Virus record (IMG/VR): IMGVR_UViG_3300050821_006235
Location: 22,078 to 86,077 of that record
Strand: one strand, 5' to 3'
DNA: 64,000 nt
DNA from: a virus
Part shown: piece after piece, positions 22,044 to 49,934 of the stretch
Numbering within the stretch: the stretch's first letter is position 1
How the letters are laid out: the number at the start of each line of letters is the position of its first letter
The notes under the pieces: model-generated
Database searches by the model: none
Seen by the model: the letters and a program-made list of their open reading frames with translations, nothing else
What the model was told of the DNA's origin: nothing
Position numbers and translations under genes: made by a program

Positions 22044-22447
22044 TGGCCGAACACATCGGTATCGAAGAGGCCCGCAAGAACCTCGGCCCCCTCGTCAGCC
22101 GGGTCCAGTACTCCGGAGCCGAGATCATCCTGACCCGCAACAGCAAGCCCGCCGCCATGCTCGTCCCGATCCCCCAGGAGCCCGCCATGACCGACGCCCG
22201 ACGCTGGAAAGTCACCATCGAGTCGACTGGTTCCGAGCCCGTGTTCAGCAAGACGGTCAAAACCCTTCAGCACCCCGAGGAAGTGGGGCGCGGGCTGCTG
22301 CTCTGGTGGGTGAAGCAGAACGGCCCCAAGGATGGGCAAGGGCAGCCATACGCCGCTCAGGTTGACCCGCTCGGAAGCGGTGACGGCCGCTACGTGACCC
22401 TGTCCGACATCAAGGACGAGCTGAAGAGCCTCGGCCTGGAGCCCTGA
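22040..22447 (+). CDS. Phd/YefM-like DNA-binding domain fused to an unknown domain
   Basis: IGIEEARKNLGPLVSRV..IILTRNSKPAAMLVPI; internal RBS and ATG at 22187. Confidence 0.75.
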   Translation: MMAEHIGIEEARKNLGPLVSRVQYSGAEIILTRNSKPAAMLVPIPQEPAMTDARRWKVTIESTGSEPVFSKTVKTLQHPEEVGRGLLLWWVKQNGPKDGQGQPYAAQVDPLGSGDGRYVTLSDIKDELKSLGLEP

Positions 22448-40506: not shown

Positions 40507-41487
40507 TCAGCGGCGGACCTTGCGGAGCGCCAGGTTCTGAGAACGGGTCAGGGCTTGCAGGTGGGCCGGGTTGACGCAGCGACGGACGTGACAGGTGTGA
40601 TGCACGTCTAGGCCCACGGGCAGCGGCCCGGAAGCCAACTCGTAGGAATAACGGTGAGCCTGGACCTGAACCCCGGTGTAGGCCGTGAACTGGCCATAGC
40701 CCGTCCCAGGATTGACCGCCGCAGTCCACAGCCAGCAAGAGTCGGTCTTGTCGACCTTCTCCCAGAACCGCTGCTCGGGCGTCCGCTGCCTCGGTCGCTC
40801 GACGCTCGGATCTCTGAGCCACTTGCGATAACACGGACGGCAGAGCGTTCGCTTGAAGAGGGGCCGATCGCCACTGCACTCGGTGCAGTGGGTCGGCTTC
40901 TCGATTTTCGGCTTCACCGGAACGACCTCGGGGGCGTACCCCCAGAAGGCGCCCTGATTGCCGCGCCGGATGTTCTCGCGCGGCGTTACGGGCTCCAGGT
41001 GCTCCGGCCTGACGCAACTGCGCCGACGGCACAGGTGGTCGAGGTGGAGACCCTTCGATATCAGACCCACCAAGTACTGGTAGGCGATCCGATGAACGAG
41101 TTGCGTCCCTTTGCCGCCGAATACACCGTAGCCGGTGACCGGGTGCTTGCATCCGGTCCAAACCCAGCAGGGGCCCAGTGACTGGCGCTCCTCGGGGAGG
41201 GGGCCGTCCTTGTCGACTTGCGCCCAGAAGCGTCGAGCGCGCGGGTCAGTGACCTCGCCGTGCTTCTCGACTCGGCGCACGTGCATCTCGCACATGCCGC
41301 GCCGCTTCGGGGTCCGGTCACATTCCTCAACCGAACACCTCTCGCCCTGCTCGGCGTAGCGGCGCGTCTCATGTAGGGGGTCGCCGTATGTCCGCCAGCG
41401 TGCGTAATGCGTCGAGCACCAGCCGCGTCCGAAGGCGTGCTTACCGCAGTCGGCAATCGAGCAGTCCACATCTGAGTTGACCGTCAC
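40507..41487 (-). CDS. Double-HNH homing endonuclease
   Basis: Two CWxWT..GYG..HR..HxC..CVxPxHL units. Confidence 0.9.
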   Translation of the reverse strand: MTVNSDVDCSIADCGKHAFGRGWCSTHYARWRTYGDPLHETRRYAEQGERCSVEECDRTPKRRGMCEMHVRRVEKHGEVTDPRARRFWAQVDKDGPLPEERQSLGPCWVWTGCKHPVTGYGVFGGKGTQLVHRIAYQYLVGLISKGLHLDHLCRRRSCVRPEHLEPVTPRENIRRGNQGAFWGYAPEVVPVKPKIEKPTHCTECSGDRPLFKRTLCRPCYRKWLRDPSVERPRQRTPEQRFWEKVDKTDSCWLWTAAVNPGTGYGQFTAYTGVQVQAHRYSYELASGPLPVGLDVHHTCHVRRCVNPAHLQALTRSQNLALRKVRR

Positions 41488-41580: not shown

Positions 41581-43080
41581 TCAGCCCACGTTTTGAAGAA
41601 CCGCCATGGCAACCGGGGCCTTATTCACGAAGGCGCCCATTGACTTAATTTCGAATTCACGACGCGGGCCGCCGCCGGAGGTGTTGGCGATGCGGTTGAT
41701 GCCGTAGTCGAACTGGGCGGTGTCACGCAGCGACCGGTACTCCAGCACGCTGGAGATGTTCGCCTGCGGGAACGGAACCCGGTCGGTGCGGGCCGCGATG
41801 GTGCCCGGGGGCAGCGACACGTGCACCTCGATGGGGACGGTCACACCACCCGCGGGCGCGTTCACGATCTCGCCGACCCGGCCACCAGCGACCACGCTGA
41901 TACGGCCGGAAGCGTCGGTGTTCAGGAACGTCGTCGCGCTGGATCCGCCCAGGATCAGGTTCGCGATCTCCTGCGCCTGCACGGCGTTGACCATGATGGC
42001 GGTCGGGGAACACTTCACTTGCTGCCACAGCGGCAGGAACAGCAGGTTCTCGATCTCCGCGACGGACCCGCCGGACAGGGTCAGTGTCGCGCCGTCGAGG
42101 CTGTTGTTGATCGACGGGTTGGCGGTGCCGGTGCCGGGCTGCACCCACTGGCCGACCCCGTTGTAGTCGCCCGCCAGGGACGCGAGGAACCCGTCGTAGT
42201 CGGCCGCGTTGGCGGACCCGTTGTCGGCGGCGGTGTTGATGGTCGGGACCGTGCTACCGGCGCCCTTCCAGACCGTGGTCAGGTCCGGGACGGCGGTGCC
42301 GGACGGCAGCGCGTTGTTGGAGCCAATGACGCTGGTCATGGTGACCGTGTTGGCCGTGGTGGTCGTGTAGTAGTACCAGGTGGTGCCGTTCGCGGACTGG
42401 AACCAGTCGTAGCAGACGGCGCCGCGCACGGACGCGACGGTCGCCTGGACGGAGTTGGTGGTCCCGGCGCCGGATGCGCCGCTGTTGCTGTTGCCCTGGG
42501 AGTTCCCGGACCCGTAGTAGTAGCCCGAGCCCGTTCTGGCGGCGACACCCACGTACACGGTGGTGGTGGCGGGGATGGTGCCGCCGGTGGTCTTCTGCGT
42601 CAGTGTCGGCGCGGCCGGGCGGGCCAGCGCGAACGACTGGGCGCCGACGAGCTTACGGTCGTCGCCGATCAGGACCTGGTTGAGGGTCTGGAACGTCGCG
42701 GTCGCGTACGGGTCGTCGTACCCGGTCGCCAGGTCGTAGGCGTCCTGGGTGACCATCCCGGCCAGGCCGGTGCCCTTGTACGCGGCCTGGAAGTCCTGCT
42801 CGTTGAACACGACCTCGTTCGCGGCGAAGTCGAACGGGATCGACGGGTCGGGCTGCGCGTTCGTCGTGTTCATGATCGCCCGCCAGACGGCGTACTTGTT
42901 ACCGTCGGGGCTCTTGGTGCGGGCGACGTGGTCACGGAACGGCGTGACCACCGGAACCAGAGTGACCAGCGGCGACAGGTCGTAGCTGACGATGCCGGTT
43001 GCGGTGGTGATGCCGGTGGTCTGCGCCTTGGTGATCGCGGCGAGCGTCTCCTTGGTGACGTCGTCGAGGGTGTTGCTCAC
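41581..43080 (-). CDS. Major capsid protein
   Basis: About 500 aa after scaffold, GGAGG RBS, very high GC3. Confidence 0.8.
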   Translation of the reverse strand: MSNTLDDVTKETLAAITKAQTTGITTATGIVSYDLSPLVTLVPVVTPFRDHVARTKSPDGNKYAVWRAIMNTTNAQPDPSIPFDFAANEVVFNEQDFQAAYKGTGLAGMVTQDAYDLATGYDDPYATATFQTLNQVLIGDDRKLVGAQSFALARPAAPTLTQKTTGGTIPATTTVYVGVAARTGSGYYYGSGNSQGNSNSGASGAGTTNSVQATVASVRGAVCYDWFQSANGTTWYYYTTTTANTVTMTSVIGSNNALPSGTAVPDLTTVWKGAGSTVPTINTAADNGSANAADYDGFLASLAGDYNGVGQWVQPGTGTANPSINNSLDGATLTLSGGSVAEIENLLFLPLWQQVKCSPTAIMVNAVQAQEIANLILGGSSATTFLNTDASGRISVVAGGRVGEIVNAPAGGVTVPIEVHVSLPPGTIAARTDRVPFPQANISSVLEYRSLRDTAQFDYGINRIANTSGGGPRREFEIKSMGAFVNKAPVAMAVLQNVG

Positions 43081-43152
43081 GGATGCCTCCTGGGCATGCA
43101 AAAGCCCCCGGGCGTGGACCGCTCTCGGGGGCGTGAAGGGCTGGGGCTGGGC

Positions 43153-44757
43153 CTACTGCGGCGTGGGCCGCTGGCGGATCTCCTGGAGCATGGCGATGGC
43201 CCCGGTCTGCATCTCGTTGGCGATGCGGTTCTGCTCGTGTGCGTCGACGGCGCCGTACAGGCCCTTCTTCATCTGCTGGGCCTGGGCCGCGTCGACGCCG
43301 ACCGGTACGCCGGCGTTCTGGCCGCGCAGCATGCTGGGCGGCGGGACGGCTCCGTTGGTGAACACCTTCGGGGTAGCGGGCTGCTCTTCCAGCGCCTTGA
43401 CCAGGCCCCTCAGCTTCTCGACCTCCTCCGCCAGTTGAGCGTGGTCGGCCGCCTGCTTGGCGATGACCTGCTCCTGTGTGGCGGTGTAGTCGGCGAGTGC
43501 TGCTGTGGCCGCGTCCTTGGCGATGCTCTTGAGGACTGCATCCGGAACGGTGATGTCGGTGTCGGTCTTGTCGGTGGTGCTCTTGGTGACGTCGTCGGGT
43601 ACGGCGTCGGCGGGGGTGCCGACCTCGGCCGCCGGGGCGGGGGTGAGGTCGGAAGCGTCGGGGGCGGCGTCGGCCGCCGGGGTGTCCGCGCCGTCGTCAG
43701 GGTCGGCGGCCGGGTCGGCCTCGCTGTTGGAGACCGGGGTGACGTCGGCAGGATCGACGATGCCGATCAGGCGCCCCTTCTGGTCGTAGACCACCGTCAT
43801 CGGGGTCTTCTCCCCGTCGGCCTTGGCGATGGGCTCGGGCTTGGCGGTGCCCATCTTGGGCTGCTCGCCTGCGTCGGTGATGGTGTCCTCGACGAGGGTG
43901 GGCTTGGGCATGTCGGTCTCCGTTTCCTTGGCGACCGACTGGCCGTCCTCGGGGGCTGTGGGGGCTTGCGGCAGGGACGCGAGGACCTTCTGGAGCGACT
44001 CGACGGCGCCTCGGATCGCCATCTCGTTCGCGGTGGACAGCACCCGCCCGGCCTTCCGGATCTGCCCGAACGCCTCGATTGTGTCGAGCGGTGCGGTGTC
44101 GAACGCGGCGAGGGTTTTACCGACGGCCATCATGTCGGCGGCCATGTCGGCTTCGGCCTGCTCGGCGACAGCGAACGGGGCCAGCACGCTGATGGCGTAG
44201 TCGATGGCGCAGCACGCGTCATCGAGGTCCATGGAGTTGTCGATGGCGTCCTCGTCGCCGCTGGCCGCTTCGAGCATTTCCCGCTGGGCGAGCATGTCGA
44301 TGGCGCCCTTCGCGCGGGCGAGGATGCTCGTCCATTTGCGGGCGGTGGCGGCGTCGATGGCCTCCCACGCCGGGGAGCCGGGGTCAGACGGGCTGCCGGG
44401 GGCTTCGTCGTCGTCGGGTGCGGCGAGCGGCAGGGTGGGGTCCATGCCGTCCGGACTGTCGTCGAGGTCCAAGTCCTTGACCACCTCGGCAGGTTCGGCG
44501 GCCGGACGTGAGGCCTCGTGGATCAGCTTGGCGATCGCGCCGGGTGAGCCCGTCATCGTCACCGTCTCCCTACTGTCGGTTTCTGGTTCGGATTTGGCGA
44601 TCAGGTCACGGACGAAGGCGGCATCCAACAGGCCGGCCGAGCCGTCCTCGCGCTTGGCGATCAGGAACCGCATGCCGTTCGCCGCCCTGTCGACCAGATC
44701 CACGCGGGTGATGTCGGCGTCCACCAACTCGGTGAACTCGTCGTCGTCGTCGTTCAC
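43153..44757 (-). CDS. Capsid scaffold protein with protease-like N-terminal motif
   Basis: Acidic, coiled-coil C-terminus; RVDLVDRAAN. Confidence 0.7.
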   Translation of the reverse strand: MNDDDDEFTELVDADITRVDLVDRAANGMRFLIAKREDGSAGLLDAAFVRDLIAKSEPETDSRETVTMTGSPGAIAKLIHEASRPAAEPAEVVKDLDLDDSPDGMDPTLPLAAPDDDEAPGSPSDPGSPAWEAIDAATARKWTSILARAKGAIDMLAQREMLEAASGDEDAIDNSMDLDDACCAIDYAISVLAPFAVAEQAEADMAADMMAVGKTLAAFDTAPLDTIEAFGQIRKAGRVLSTANEMAIRGAVESLQKVLASLPQAPTAPEDGQSVAKETETDMPKPTLVEDTITDAGEQPKMGTAKPEPIAKADGEKTPMTVVYDQKGRLIGIVDPADVTPVSNSEADPAADPDDGADTPAADAAPDASDLTPAPAAEVGTPADAVPDDVTKSTTDKTDTDITVPDAVLKSIAKDAATAALADYTATQEQVIAKQAADHAQLAEEVEKLRGLVKALEEQPATPKVFTNGAVPPPSMLRGQNAGVPVGVDAAQAQQMKKGLYGAVDAHEQNRIANEMQTGAIAMLQEIRQRPTPQ

Positions 44758-45347
44758 GCGGCACTCCTCCGCTTCGCGGTTCCCTGCGGCGACATCCCGG
44801 TGATGAGCCCGCGTTTGTACAGATCCCAGGCGATCGGGTCGCAGATCCCACCAACGAGCCAGTCGCCCGCCTTGATCACCGTGTCCTCGTCAACGACCCA
44901 GTCCGGGCCGCGATAGATGTAGCTCTCGGTAACCGTGAAGTGGCCAACGGTGTCGTCCGGCCCGTGGAACAGGCCGACCTGCGCCCCGTTGGGAAGGAAA
45001 CTCCATGCCGCTTTCTCCAACTCGGCAGCGGAGAAGGCATCACGTCCACCGTCAGCACCCCGCTTGATCTTCGGATCGCGCCCGACCTGATAGGCCACCG
45101 ACAACAGGTAGCGCTGCGCCGCCGCGACCTTGCCGAGCATCCGTACCGGGCCGTCCGTCATCCGGCCGGGGATGTCAACGCCGGGTGCTGCCTGGACGTG
45201 AACGTCGTGGTCCAGCCACATGCCGCAGACACAGTTTCCGGAGCCTGACTGGACGTCGCGGGCGTACACGTGCGACTGGGTGTACTGGTCCGGGAACGGG
45301 CCGATGGAGCCTTCCCAGCCGGGGACGCTGTTGCCGTCCACGCGCAC
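44754..45347 (-). CDS. XkdF-like prohead serine protease
   Basis: ELEKAAWSF..VGLFH..ESYIY..GDWLVG..ITGMSPQG. Confidence 0.8.
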   Translation of the reverse strand: MRVDGNSVPGWEGSIGPFPDQYTQSHVYARDVQSGSGNCVCGMWLDHDVHVQAAPGVDIPGRMTDGPVRMLGKVAAAQRYLLSVAYQVGRDPKIKRGADGGRDAFSAAELEKAAWSFLPNGAQVGLFHGPDDTVGHFTVTESYIYRGPDWVVDEDTVIKAGDWLVGGICDPIAWDLYKRGLITGMSPQGTAKRRSAA

Positions 45348-45378: not shown

Positions 45379-48300
45379 TCAGAACCCGCCGAGGATGTCT
45401 TGAAGGTCGGACACGGACGGCAGGCTCACTCCGCCGATGTCGTCTGGGACCAGACTGCATCGGCACCGGGGGTGCAAAGGGGGTGCGTCGACCCGGCCGG
45501 TGAACGCCTCGCCGAGCGGAATGGGCGAGTCCGCCGCGCACGCGTCACAGCCCGGACACACCCTGGTGTCGGACGCTGTCAACCAACTCACAGTCCCGAC
45601 ACCGGCCTGCTGGTAGTTCGCCAGCGCTGCCTGGGACATGGCCCGGGAGATCTCCGTGATGGCGATCATGTCGGCGCTGGCCGCAGTGACACCGAGAGCT
45701 TCGATGTCGGCGGCCAGGCTGTCCGACGATGCGCCGTCCGCGAGCGCCTGCTCCAGGAGCGACGCCAGGTCGTCCATGCGGGTGCCGGTGATGCCCTGGA
45801 TGGCGGTGATGCCGTAGTGGTCGAGCCAGTCCTGAAGGGACTGCTGGTCGTACACGATCAGCGCCGGGTCGATCACCGTGGTGGGCGGGTCACCTTCACT
45901 CTTGACGACACGGCCGTACCGCGCCCAGTCGACGCCGGTCCCTTGCAGGACCGCCTGAGCGGAAGCGGTGCCGACCGCCCACCCCGCTGTCCACAGCGGT
46001 GTGAGGACCGCGCGCAGCCCGTCGCCGATCTGATCGGCCAGGCCGGGTTGGGTCTGCTGGAGCCACGCCTTCGCCGGCTGGGTGGGGCGTGCCGTGTCCG
46101 ACCAGGCGGCGGAGATCGGGTTGGCTACGCCGGACAGGACGCCGACGACTGCTTGCCGGATGCGCGGAGCCCAGGCGGCGGCGAGTTGCTCGTCCACATC
46201 CCAGCCGGGCCAGTGGGTTGAGCCCCCGTCAGAGGCCCGGCCTTTTGGGCGGGTGTCGCCGGCCTTCACAACCTGCGGCGTGCCGAGCGCATCCATCACC
46301 AGGTCGATCGAGTCGAGCAACTCCTGCCGTACCGCCGGATTGCCGGGCAGTTGCGCCGGATCCCAGAAGGCGATGGCCTCGATTGAGTCGCCGTCGGGAT
46401 CGTCTGGATTCGAGACCTGGTCGCGGCCCACCAGGGGCACGCAGTCCTCGGACGGGACGGTCCACACGATGCCCTGGTAGACACCGTCTGGGCTGGTCCA
46501 GGTGCCGGTCTGCTCGCCTGGCGGCGGGATACACCCGGTCTCCTCGGCGAACTCTCTCCAAGCGCCCTGAAGCGGGGTCTCCTCGCCTTCGAGGTGCCCG
46601 CCGGGAACCTCCCACGTCCCGGCAGCCGGGTCGGTGTCGTCGAGCGCGCGCTGAAGCATCAGGACCCGGCCAGTGTCGGCCGCCCGGACAGCGAGCCCTG
46701 CAACAGCTACCTGCCCTGCCTCCTTGCGGACCGCGAGACGGCCCGCGTCGTTGAGGCGGTGGCCCTTGACCGGGTCGACCGCGTGGAACTGGAAGTCGCG
46801 CCACTTGCCGGCGCGGCGGCGACGCCCCCGGTGGTTCCGGAAGTTCTTCATCTCCCGCTTGGCGAGTTCGGCGCGCTGCTCCTCGTCCTCGTCGTCCTTG
46901 TGGCCGACCAGGTCGTAGCCGACGATCCCCGTCGCGGTGGTGATCCCTGCGGTGGCTGCGGCTTCCTTGACCGCCGGTTGCTGCATGTCGCCCACAGCCT
47001 GCGGGTCGTCAGCGGCAGACGGTCCGTAGATCTGCTCGGCGAGCGGCGGTGACACCAGCGGCGGTACCGGCACAACACCCTCGATCGCCCGGAACGCGTC
47101 GTGTGAGACGGGTGCGTCCAGTGCGGGCGCGGCCGTCTGATGGTCGACCGGCCCCGCCACGGCGTCCAGCGCCGACAGCGGGATCGGCCCACCCCTCGTC
47201 GTGAAGATGAAACGCGGAACAGGGCGACCACCCGGCTCGGTGAGCCCGAACCGCATCTCCCGCACCTCGGACACCGACACGACCCCGGCCTTGACGTACA
47301 GGTCGTCGGCCTGGGCGATGGCGAGCCGGTCGGCCTGCTCCTCGCCGAGGTCGAACGCGAACCGCAACGGCAGGCCAAGGTCGTACTGCAAGAAGTCGGT
47401 CAGCACATCCTGGACGTGCTTGATCAGCGGCAGGTCACCGACACGGTGCTGAACGTCGGCCTGGCTCTCGCCGCTCGACCTGTTCACGTTCTCGGTGAAG
47501 CCCAGGTCAGCGGGCACCACGTGGTACGCGGCAGCGGTCTTGCGCATCAGGAACAAGCTGAAGTGGTCGGAGAAGTCCTTCTCGTTGTTCCACGCAAGCG
47601 AGGAGCCGCCCGGCATCCACTTGATCTGGGATTTCACCGCTTGGTCGCCGAGCATGAAAGCGTCCCAATACGACTGGAACTGCTCGATCTGGTTCGGCGT
47701 CCACGTCTCCGGGGCGCTCGCGAACGCGGCCGGGATGTTGCCCTCGGTGAAGCGTTGCAGGAAGTAGCTCTGGAACCGCAGGTCGGTGTTGGCGTTAAGG
47801 AGGATGCTTTCCAACGGCGCCCGCCCGTACGGGGAGGACGCCGTCTTCCGGAACGGCGAGTAGATCAGGTCGCTGCGCGTCATCCAGTTCCACGGCAGCC
47901 CCTGCACGTACTGGACGTACGCCTCAGCGGGTTCCGCCGGCGGATTACCCCAGTAGTCGAGCAGCGGGGCGATCATCGTGCCGTCGACGACACGCAAACC
48001 GATCGCCCGGCCGCCACGGTTACGCAACCGGTACAACGTTCCGGCGTCGTAAGCGAGGATGTGGTACAGCCATTCGCCGAGCCACACACCGAACGGGGTG
48101 TCACGGTCGGGCTTCTTCAGGGCTGCCATGCCGATCGTGATGGCGTCGGTGACGTCACCGGTGGAGCCGTCTTCGGCGATGAGCGACCAGTCGAGGGACC
48201 GGATGGAGTCGATCCGGTGCCAAATGCACATCTGGGCGACGTCGTACGCCTCGACCAACCCGCGAAGGGTGTCGAACGAGACGCGCTCGTGGGACCTGGG

Positions 48301-48513
48301 CCGGGCGGCAATGTTGTACCCGGCAACGAACTCGTGGCTGCGGGGCGTGCGGTTGAACCCGTCGTACGGCCCGATCGGTTCGCCGGGTGAGAACGGGCGG
48401 CTGGGGGTCATCCCGGCGGCTTCTTCGCCTGCACGCATTCCTGCGGGCTCCGCGTTGCCGAACACCTTCGCGAAGCGGGTGAGGTTGGCGGCGAAGCGGG
48501 AGCGGACACCCAT
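45379..48513 (-). CDS. Portal-NUDIX-MuF (minor head) fusion protein
   Basis: Portal N-terminus (YGRAPLE, HVVPADLGF, SEVREMRFGL); NUDIX box GGHLEGEETPLQGAWREFAEETG; MuF IAITEISRA..PPLHPRCRC. Confidence 0.88.
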   Translation of the reverse strand: MGVRSRFAANLTRFAKVFGNAEPAGMRAGEEAAGMTPSRPFSPGEPIGPYDGFNRTPRSHEFVAGYNIAARPRSHERVSFDTLRGLVEAYDVAQMCIWHRIDSIRSLDWSLIAEDGSTGDVTDAITIGMAALKKPDRDTPFGVWLGEWLYHILAYDAGTLYRLRNRGGRAIGLRVVDGTMIAPLLDYWGNPPAEPAEAYVQYVQGLPWNWMTRSDLIYSPFRKTASSPYGRAPLESILLNANTDLRFQSYFLQRFTEGNIPAAFASAPETWTPNQIEQFQSYWDAFMLGDQAVKSQIKWMPGGSSLAWNNEKDFSDHFSLFLMRKTAAAYHVVPADLGFTENVNRSSGESQADVQHRVGDLPLIKHVQDVLTDFLQYDLGLPLRFAFDLGEEQADRLAIAQADDLYVKAGVVSVSEVREMRFGLTEPGGRPVPRFIFTTRGGPIPLSALDAVAGPVDHQTAAPALDAPVSHDAFRAIEGVVPVPPLVSPPLAEQIYGPSAADDPQAVGDMQQPAVKEAAATAGITTATGIVGYDLVGHKDDEDEEQRAELAKREMKNFRNHRGRRRRAGKWRDFQFHAVDPVKGHRLNDAGRLAVRKEAGQVAVAGLAVRAADTGRVLMLQRALDDTDPAAGTWEVPGGHLEGEETPLQGAWREFAEETGCIPPPGEQTGTWTSPDGVYQGIVWTVPSEDCVPLVGRDQVSNPDDPDGDSIEAIAFWDPAQLPGNPAVRQELLDSIDLVMDALGTPQVVKAGDTRPKGRASDGGSTHWPGWDVDEQLAAAWAPRIRQAVVGVLSGVANPISAAWSDTARPTQPAKAWLQQTQPGLADQIGDGLRAVLTPLWTAGWAVGTASAQAVLQGTGVDWARYGRVVKSEGDPPTTVIDPALIVYDQQSLQDWLDHYGITAIQGITGTRMDDLASLLEQALADGASSDSLAADIEALGVTAASADMIAITEISRAMSQAALANYQQAGVGTVSWLTASDTRVCPGCDACAADSPIPLGEAFTGRVDAPPLHPRCRCSLVPDDIGGVSLPSVSDLQDILGGF

Positions 48514-48527
48514 ACGGGCAGGCCCCC

Positions 48528-49934
48528 TTAACGTTGCTGCTGCCGGTAGGCGGCGTCTCTGGCTCGTTTACGTACGGCGGCAGGGTCTTCGGGTTCGGCC
48601 GGACTGGTCGTCTCGGGCTCGGCTGCTTCCGTTGCGGCCGGTTCGCTCGCCGCGGCGACCTGCTCGGCTTTGCGGCGGGCGTAGTCAATCCACGCCTGCG
48701 CGTTGAAGTCGTCGGTCAGCTCCGTCACGGCCCACACCAATGCGTCGAGGCGGTCCGGGCTCGTGCCGTCCTGAGGCGTCCACTGCGTCATCTGGTCTTC
48801 GAGCTTCGGCAACGCCCCGACGTGGTGGACGCGGTGCTGCTCGTACAGTGCGGCGACAGGTTCGGCGCGCTGTACCTTTCCGCGCGACGCGGTGATGACC
48901 TTCACGGGGGCGTTCGCGTCGACCTGCCGGATCGTGGACTCGACCATGTCCCCGCCGTAGTTCCTCTCGGCGATGATCCGGTCCGCTGAGAACTCGTGGT
49001 AGGCGCCGACTGCCCGCGATGCCCACCCGTGCGGGGACAGGCTGCACGAGCGGTCCGCAAGGACGTACAGGCCACCGTCCACACCGACACCCACCACGAC
49101 GATGCCCTGCTCGTCGTTGTTCGGGCCCGACCCGCCAGACGGGTCGACCGCCACGACGATGCGGCGCATGTCCGGTGCTTCGGTGACCCGGTTCTCGTCG
49201 AGGAGGGTGATCGTCCACAGTGCGCCCTCGACGTCGTCGAGGAGTTCTCCGAGGAGCTCCTGACGGCCGATCCTCGTACCTTCGTAGGTGGCGAGGACTT
49301 CGTCACGGAAGGAGGGCGCAAGGTTGGCCAGGTTGTCGTACGTGGTCCCGCGCGTCACAACCGTCGTAGGGCGGGAGAGGACCGTACGGACGAGAGCGTT
49401 GGGCTTCGGCGTCGTGGTGAACAGGCATCGGGGCGACGTGCCGAGCCGGAGCCCCAAGAGCAGGTTGTTCCATGCGGTGTCGAGCGCGTCGCCCTTACGC
49501 GCATCGGTCCACGCGGCGGGTTCGTCGCACCACGCGAAGTGATGCTGTGGTCCGCGGAGTTGCGCCGGGACTTCAGCGGAGTAGGTGTGTGCCGTGGATC
49601 CGTTCGGCCATGTCAGCCGCCGCTTCGTCGACTGGTAGACGGGTTGGTGGTCGCCAGCGACCGCGAGGATCCCCGACTCGCCCTCGATCATGACGTCGCG
49701 CACATCCGCCGGAGTACGGCCGACCAGCGCAATCCGTACGCCCGGGTTCTGTGTCGCCTGCTCGTGCACCCACTCGGCAGCACTGCGCGTTTTTCCAGAT
49801 CCGCGCCCGGCTATGTAAGACCAGACGAGCCACTCCCCAGGCGGTGGCAACTGCTCGGGCCGGGCGATCTTCCGCCACTCCGGGGGCCGTACGATCTCGA
49901 AGTCGCGGGCCGCGTACTCCCAGATGGCGGTCAC
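48528..49934 (-). CDS. terL: Terminase large subunit
   Basis: AGRGSGKT, LRGPQHHFAWCDE, TTTP, VAVDPS and SPDRLDALVWA motifs. Confidence 0.95.
   Translation of the reverse strand: MTAIWEYAARDFEIVRPPEWRKIARPEQLPPPGEWLVWSYIAGRGSGKTRSAAEWVHEQATQNPGVRIALVGRTPADVRDVMIEGESGILAVAGDHQPVYQSTKRRLTWPNGSTAHTYSAEVPAQLRGPQHHFAWCDEPAAWTDARKGDALDTAWNNLLLGLRLGTSPRCLFTTTPKPNALVRTVLSRPTTVVTRGTTYDNLANLAPSFRDEVLATYEGTRIGRQELLGELLDDVEGALWTITLLDENRVTEAPDMRRIVVAVDPSGGSGPNNDEQGIVVVGVGVDGGLYVLADRSCSLSPHGWASRAVGAYHEFSADRIIAERNYGGDMVESTIRQVDANAPVKVITASRGKVQRAEPVAALYEQHRVHHVGALPKLEDQMTQWTPQDGTSPDRLDALVWAVTELTDDFNAQAWIDYARRKAEQVAAASEPAATEAAEPETTSPAEPEDPAAVRKRARDAAYRQQQR

Follow-up and report, generated by a model that had tools for sequence, protein, structure and literature searches.

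Several known phage head systems bear on the locus described here. In phage T4, the internal proteins and Alt bear a capsid targeting sequence (CTS), a short peptide which is common to unrelated head-internal proteins, is coupled to a prohead-protease site and brings anti-host enzymes into the head (PMC3012670). In phage 80alpha, one conserved sequence stands beside the cleavage site on non-homologous head proteins including the capsid protein; this sequence is an N-terminal peptide that copies ribosomal protein L27 and is removed by the host cysteine protease Prp, which cuts at Phe/Ala (PMC5744158). In HK97, the S78-type protease gp4 cuts the HK97-fold capsid protein gp5 at K103/S104, so that a Lys is found at the junction just before the flexible N-arm (PMC10275583). 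Finally, the polyvalent proteins include fusions of portal and MuF domains with a NUDIX or a 2H phosphoesterase domain, encoded in the head module, for which packaging and injection have been proposed (Iyer, Burroughs, Anand, de Souza, Aravind 2017, PMC5512222). Here we describe a locus that resembles each of these systems in part. It lies in a stretch of soil-phage DNA of 64,000 nucleotides (86-kb IMG/VR record IMGVR_UViG_3300050821_006235, positions 22,078 to 86,077; hereafter the window), in which a portal-NUDIX-MuF fusion protein carries, in the linker behind its portal domain, a near-exact copy of a 13-residue peptide (13-mer) from the N-terminal region of the major capsid protein. In both proteins a conserved Lys, which is probably the cut site of the adjacent head protease, precedes the peptide.

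The peptides of the fusion protein and of the capsid protein are identical at 12/13 residues and 34/39 bases (positions of all features are given in Table 1). The base differences consist of four synonymous changes and one Gly/Ser change, and the DNA flanking the two copies is dissimilar. Translation of the two stretches on the plus strand gives unrelated letters because both genes are on the minus strand. These data confirm the claim of an earlier note, made on this DNA from its sequence alone, of a near-exact copy with several synonymous codon differences; its coordinates were right, the strand being minus. The same note had placed one copy in the linker between portal and NUDIX, in agreement with the Pfam matches, and had seen a Lys shortly ahead of each copy, which is correct and proved invariant in relatives. 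The portal copy is internal to its polypeptide, and the candidate cut site is ahead of the peptide and not behind it. Neither copy is bordered by Phe-Ala; the conserved flanking residue is Lys.

When the fusion protein and the capsid protein were compared by windows of 13 residues, the top pair had 12 identities, against a maximum of 9 in 200 shuffles of both proteins (best values of 6 identities in 48 shuffles, 7 in 142, 8 in 9 and 9 in 1). No third copy of the 13-mer was detected in a six-frame search of the window, which leaves two copies in total. A position matrix built from 72 distinct motif copies, the window's own two included, gave scores of 45.8 and 44.7 bits for these two, while the next match in any open reading frame (ORF) reached 8.0 and 20 shuffles gave no score above 10.9. 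Applied to all ORFs of the window, those of scaffold and protease included, the matrix revealed no degenerate third copy. A weak likeness to the motif noticed by eye at the scaffold N-terminus of one relative (L036) was not upheld.

Related loci were then compared (42 + 22 + 40); the relatives are contigs of ~85-100 kilobases and prophages in Streptomyces, Kitasatospora, Streptacidiphilus, Catenulispora and others. The copies in the two proteins share the core G-I-x3-T-G-x2-[SG]-Y-D-L, whose opening is preferentially G-I-T in portals and mostly G-I-L in capsids. The capsid motif was found at the same place in 45/45 capsids of the first set, and the strict pattern in 65/67 capsid sources, the cultured phage Sonali and locus L062 having variant forms. 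In an alignment of 46 capsid proteins, the invariant N-terminal positions were T12, K18, A19, G23, G29, D34 and L35 (numbering of the 499-residue form). On the portal side, linkers were collected from ORFs holding both a portal-end anchor and a post-linker anchor, which yielded 73 ORFs with 59 distinct linkers. The strict motif is present in 47/59 of these linkers from related Streptomycetaceae phages and prophages, and a degenerate form in 3/59 (L050, L057 and L062). It is absent in 8/59, namely the distant Sonali, Mufasa8, L043, L092, L093 and L096 and the close L080 and L081, and is also absent in L036/L061, which carry a different cargo. The one remaining linker, that of L065, has a stop codon ahead of the motif, which was discarded as an artefact, this contig being full of frameshifts with its capsid gene split over three frames. 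Across 34 aligned fusion proteins, no change is seen at K516, D534 or L535 and hardly any at G523, T525, T528 and G529, while the neighbouring linker columns vary. The core positions are thus kept in both genes over dozens of loci whose capsid proteins are 44-90% identical, and these alignments support the idea that the similarity is maintained at the protein level.

We also searched for split genes, with the motif at the beginning of a separate cargo protein or at the end of a separate portal protein, and no true one was found in the shorter-protein and linker searches. The shorter-protein search gave a single match, a 148-residue fragment. An exhaustive search with residues 505-600 gave 61 matches, and in some of them, which have ~540 residues, the motif is close to the N-terminus. 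The one candidate for a natural split gene that could be placed on a contig (P0125) was rejected as a truncated call, since it starts at the first bases of a contig of 4175 bases (L067).

The two copies do not co-vary. For 24 distinct portal/capsid pairs, the mean identity was 8.21/13 within own pairs and 8.13 ± 0.16 after shuffling of the pairs, the value of 8.21 being reached in 36% of 20,000 shuffles; without the window's pair, the values were 8.04 and 8.07 respectively. Co-variation across related phages, which the earlier note had put forward as a test of its proposal, is therefore not observed. Portal and capsid peptides from the same locus are identical at 6-10/13 positions elsewhere, so that the 12/13 of the window is an outlier, to be regarded as the extreme of a common consensus and not as the rule. 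This outlier, together with a composition rich in Gly, Thr and Ile, is what could be expected if the match were a functionless by-product of chance, low complexity, a recent DNA copy or gene conversion. We consider this very improbable: no shuffle exceeded 9/13, the five differences in 39 bases and the unrelated flanks indicate that the window's pair is not a recent copy, and the core is kept in both genes at dozens of loci in spite of the variation of the adjacent linker columns.

The residue that precedes the motif in both proteins is part of a conserved site. In capsid proteins, Lys18 is present in 46/46 sequences, with I/V two residues before it in 46/46 and Ala after it in 46/46. In the fusion proteins, the equivalent Lys is present in 34/34, with V/I/L/M two residues before it in 33/34 and D/E next in 32/34. 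The spacing between Lys and motif is always 4 residues in capsids and 4 to 13 in portals. The same hydrophobic-x-Lys site is abundant in the scaffold-like protein encoded between the protease and the capsid protein. When V/I/L/M/F two residues ahead of a Lys was counted, 17/26 Lys of the window's scaffold fitted, compared to 5.7 ± 2.0 in shuffled sequences. The excess is restricted to offset -2 (z 5.6, against -1.4 to 1.1 at seven other offsets), and Arg, Glu and Asp show no such excess. Of 27 long ORFs in the window that are rich in G+C at the third codon position, the scaffold was the only one with z > 2 (z 5.7), the next being the portal fusion (1.9). All distinct scaffold homologues (43/43) are enriched, with z between 3.4 and 6.9 (median 5.4) and 630/989 Lys fitting. 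The gene behind the protease in the cultured phages Sonali (12/20 Lys, z 5.2) and Mufasa8 (11/19, z 5.3) behaves likewise; the capsid and terminase genes of these two phages show no hydrophobic-x-Lys enrichment.

The gene next to the fusion gene encodes an XkdF-type head maturation protease. His128 and Ser186 do not vary in an alignment of 48 relatives; these are presumably the catalytic residues, and the protease looks active. Since the same site fills the scaffold that proteases of this kind digest, hydrophobic-x-Lys is probably the cut site of this XkdF/HK97-type enzyme. In phages Mu, lambda, P2 and T5, the head protease cuts the portal protein. In the fusion protein studied here, further hydrophobic-x-Lys sites are conserved at Lys552, Lys597 and Lys750, and a site at Lys16 could be an indication that the portal N-terminus is trimmed by the same protease. 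We found no paper on the cut specificity of XkdF-type proteases in a search of the openly accessible literature.

Comparison with HK97 and 80alpha brings out what is particular to this arrangement. Whereas HK97 removes a 103-residue scaffold domain from its capsid protein, at most 18-25 residues would be lost here and the scaffold is a separate protein; the accessible part of the HK97 paper mentions no N-arm copy on another HK97 protein (PMC10275583). In contrast to 80alpha, where the shared sequence is the part removed, the motif here is behind the candidate site, the phage itself encodes the protease, which is of Ser/His type, and the other protein with the motif is a portal polyprotein. The 80alpha case nevertheless provides a precedent for another explanation of the 13-mer, because a common sequence marks the cleavage site of its capsid and scaffold proteins and of L27, all cut by Prp (PMC5744158). 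By analogy, the 13-mer could be an exosite for the head protease, which would mark two precise cuts (capsid maturation and release of the portal appendage) or stop further trimming, with no docking involved. In line with this, the 13-mer always adjoins an invariant Lys site, and the gene for an apparently active protease is adjacent. However, the scaffold has 17 hydrophobic-x-Lys sites and no 13-mer, so that cutting appears independent of the 13-mer; a spacing of 4 residues in capsids and 4 to 13 in portals is awkward for a single active-site geometry; and capsids keep the motif in lineages whose portals lack it. Considering the many scaffold sites and the variable spacing, the 13-mer does not seem to be needed for cutting, and would therefore be kept for another reason. 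It is also unlikely, judging from these sequences, that it occupies protease subsites. We regard the exosite explanation as doubtful.

Structure predictions place both copies in flexible regions. In the AlphaFold model of the capsid protein, residues 1-43 have a predicted local distance difference test (pLDDT) value < 50. The linker of the fusion protein that holds the candidate cut site and the motif is likewise predicted to be disordered; the motif itself is modelled as coil and is followed by a helix at 541-568. Behind the portal motif there is an acidic run, with 5-13 acidic residues among the next 20 (mean 7.9, 40 copies). In these models, disorder combined with an acidic run gives the typical profile of a short linear motif read by another protein. 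A co-fold of capsid residues 44-499, protease residues 73-197 and portal linker residues 505-560, with the linker as partner, returned no answer (score 0.00, without controls) and speaks neither for nor against binding.

Together, these results lead us to favour, with a probability of roughly 45%, the following reading. The 13-mer would be a conserved short linear motif that opens the capsid N-arm and is repeated behind the portal; both proteins would be cut at Lys, after which the arm peptide would bind a common partner in the prohead. The polyprotein would be built into the prohead through its portal domain. The protease would then cut behind Lys18 in the capsid protein and behind Lys516 in the polyprotein, where Lys552, Lys597 and Lys750 may be further cut sites. 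The same arm peptide would now stand at the start of both the mature capsid protein and the fragment released from the portal, the 13-mer being the first structured element of each new N-terminus. This peptide would bind one partner, either a socket on the neighbouring shell subunit or the scaffold, and binding would keep the enzyme cargo at the inner face of the head, or the tail of the portal as long as it is uncut. The cut-site assignment is well supported, and the docking role is plausible. As for the partner, it could be the shell, but equally the scaffold or the protease. The earlier note had proposed a capsid N-arm mimic conserved at the protein level, a capsid-targeting tag by which the portal or cleaved cargo would dock into the shell. 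Its proposal is partly supported, by the core kept in both proteins, the predicted disorder and an invariant Lys resembling a protease site, and its central idea is in line with the favoured reading; it fails as regards co-variation.

The proposed scheme resembles the T4 CTS but differs from it in several respects: the CTS is N-terminal on the precursor, is removed by gp21 and targets the scaffold core without being a capsid copy, whereas the peptide here is internal, probably stays on the product and equals the capsid N-arm. The T4 prohead protease site is L/I-x-E, compared to the Lys-type site here. In a more specific form of the scheme, the pieces freed from the twelve polyproteins at the portal would plug arm sockets left empty around the portal vertex, which lacks a pentamer. 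The N-arm would then serve as a portable address label that parks NUDIX or 2H enzymes near the exit channel and helps to stitch the 12-fold portal into the 5-fold hole; we hold this extension to be rather doubtful. To our knowledge, the fitting of the 12-fold portal into the 5-fold vertex is still under study.

Several observations weigh against docking of a cut piece. The window's own Lys516 is the only exception to the portal site, with Ala two residues before it and Val one before. A structural repeat, and not cutting, could underlie the scaffold enrichment, but the controls for offset and residue type speak against this. Cutting at sites 552, 597 and 750 may sever the tag from NUDIX and MuF, which would undo the idea that the tag carries the cargo; the tag would then have to act before cutting or as a free peptide. 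Lineages without the portal copy retain the one in the capsid and have the same set of head genes (portal, protease, scaffold, capsid). Lost in close relatives and absent in all distant ones, the portal copy is therefore dispensable and not essential for portal assembly. Finally, a single rapidly changing socket would predict some co-variation in the variable positions, and none is seen.

Alternatively, the portal copy may act before or without cutting. The C-terminal tail of the portal would bind scaffold or shell as the capsid N-terminus does, and would contribute to scaffold recruitment, head nucleation or the 12-fold/5-fold bridging. The linker 461-547 is long and disordered and could reach the shell. 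Moreover, it is the N-terminal scaffold domain of the HK97 capsid protein that touches the portal, and in P22 and T7 scaffold density is located close to the N-arm (PMC10275583). This role is nevertheless unlikely in our view. The copy is absent in L080, L081, L036/L061, Sonali, Mufasa8, L043, L092, L093 and L096 and hence is not required for portal incorporation, and conserved Lys sites flank the portal copy on both sides.

Table 1. Features of the head gene module and of the shared peptide (positions in the window; hydrophobic-x-Lys sites are candidate sites, with conservation given as aligned rows having the site)
Feature	Coordinates	Strand	Remarks
Terminase large subunit	48528-49934	-	Pfam/PHROG; upstream of fusion gene
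Portal-NUDIX-MuF fusion gene, 1044 residues	45379..48513	-	Pfam Phage_portal 93-420, NUDIX 603-722, Phage_Mu_F 916-1021
Hydrophobic-x-Lys site, portal Lys16	48466-48468	-	26/27 rows
Predicted disordered linker, residues 461-547	46873..47133	-	AlphaFold2 model m6a4693590f83, pLDDT < 50; holds cut site, motif and acidic run
Candidate cut site before portal copy, Lys516, residues 514-516	46966..46974	-	Conserved in relatives
Portal-linker copy of the 13-residue motif	46909..46947	-	Residues 523-535 of the 1044-residue fusion
Hydrophobic-x-Lys site Lys552	46858..46860	-	28/34 aligned rows
Hydrophobic-x-Lys site Lys597	46723..46725	-	34/34 rows; just ahead of NUDIX
Hydrophobic-x-Lys site Lys750	46264..46266	-	21/24 rows with a residue there; between NUDIX and MuF
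XkdF-type (Peptidase_S78_2) head maturation protease	44754..45347	-	Pfam PF14550, E 4.3e-10, residues 98-193
Scaffold-like protein, 534 residues	43153..44757	-	Between protease and capsid; rich in hydrophobic-x-Lys
Major capsid protein, HK97 fold	41581..43101	-	phrog_13692; 506 residues from TTG start
Candidate cut site before capsid copy, I-T-K, Lys18 (499-residue numbering)	43027..43035	-	Conserved in capsids
Capsid motif copy	42976..43014	-	Residues 30-42 of the 506-residue ORF, equal to 23-35 of the 499-residue form

The genes of the module follow each other on the minus strand in the order terminase large subunit, fusion, protease, scaffold, capsid. The fusion protein unites portal, MuF and an enzymatic domain in one polypeptide within this terminase-portal head module, and its PHROG matches are to portal, minor head protein and NUDIX. 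The protease ORF has 197 residues; most relatives match only ~73-193 of it, in ORFs of ~125 residues, and in L045, L047, L023, L026 and L035 the match extends further upstream. The start of this ORF may have been called too early, or its first ~70 residues may be an extension peculiar to the lineage. The scaffold is named from its gene position and a weak PHROG match. Its residues 10-38 match positions 4-32 of PHROG 3017 ('head maturation protease'), and the protease ORF matches positions 63-155 of the same profile. These matches suggest that what is usually the beginning of a protease-scaffold fusion belongs here to the scaffold gene, behind the protease gene; the two genes overlap by 4 bases.

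The capsid protein, whose database homologues have 499 residues, matches no Pfam family. Arthrobacter phages Sonali and Mufasa8 have a homologue with 41% identity to it, which is annotated as major capsid protein. A sequence search of solved structures with the capsid protein of the window gave no hits. Its AlphaFold model (pLDDT 75) matched the capsids of SU10, Pa223, HK97 and D3 in Foldseek with a probability of 1.00, and encapsulin shells were among the matches. Encapsulin cargo-loading peptides are short, reside on enzyme cargo and bind the inner face of an HK97-fold shell; they are usually C-terminal and are not copies of a shell arm. The notion that the element might be the Streptomyces plasmid-phage pZL12 was dropped, the sole match of the capsid protein in a plasmid collection being weak, partial and to a Herbaspirillum plasmid. 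Directly downstream of the capsid gene, a 326-residue protein with two HNH_3 endonuclease domains is encoded (40507-41487, minus strand).

The enzymatic domain of the fusion differs between relatives. A 2'-5' RNA ligase/2H phosphoesterase replaces NUDIX between portal and MuF in L022 (376-4692), L036 (806-3952), P0130 and P0177. In L022, where Pfam identifies this domain, the tag is present; in L036, with its 2H-type cargo, it is absent. The exchange of NUDIX and 2H indicates that different enzyme modules can stand behind one linker, which fits the picture of polyvalent proteins as injected effectors fused to portal and MuF (PMC5512222). In L022, the portal gene has an insertion of ~400 residues between two matching pieces (query residues 243 and 241), and in P0134 an unrelated N-terminal part is joined to the second half of the portal; both look like intein or homing-endonuclease insertions. 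L043 (1851-5933), L092 and L093 have a portal/NUDIX linker of ~300 residues with an extra domain, for which Pfam names no family, and no 13-mer. In L031 and L038, the NUDIX frame ends inside the domain and resumes ~320 bases later, which may be due to an insertion or a frameshift.

Fusions of portal, enzyme and MuF domains are already known, as are head proteins cut by a protease and peptides that target proteins to the capsid. The accessible part of the study on polyvalent proteins mentions neither a capsid-shared peptide nor a Lys cut-site pattern (PMC5512222). Our search of the openly accessible literature returned no paper in which a portal or cargo protein carries a copy of the capsid N-arm. 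On the sole basis of such searches, a capsid N-arm copy behind a cut site in a portal polyprotein is apparently undescribed. As far as we know, the loading of non-DNA cargo into phage heads is understood in detail only for a few models, T4, P22 and P1. If the favoured reading is true, a simple loading rule, made of an arm copy, a cut site and swappable anti-host enzymes, would apply to a large group of actinobacterial phages and prophages, and it might also be put to use for packing foreign proteins into HK97-type shells.

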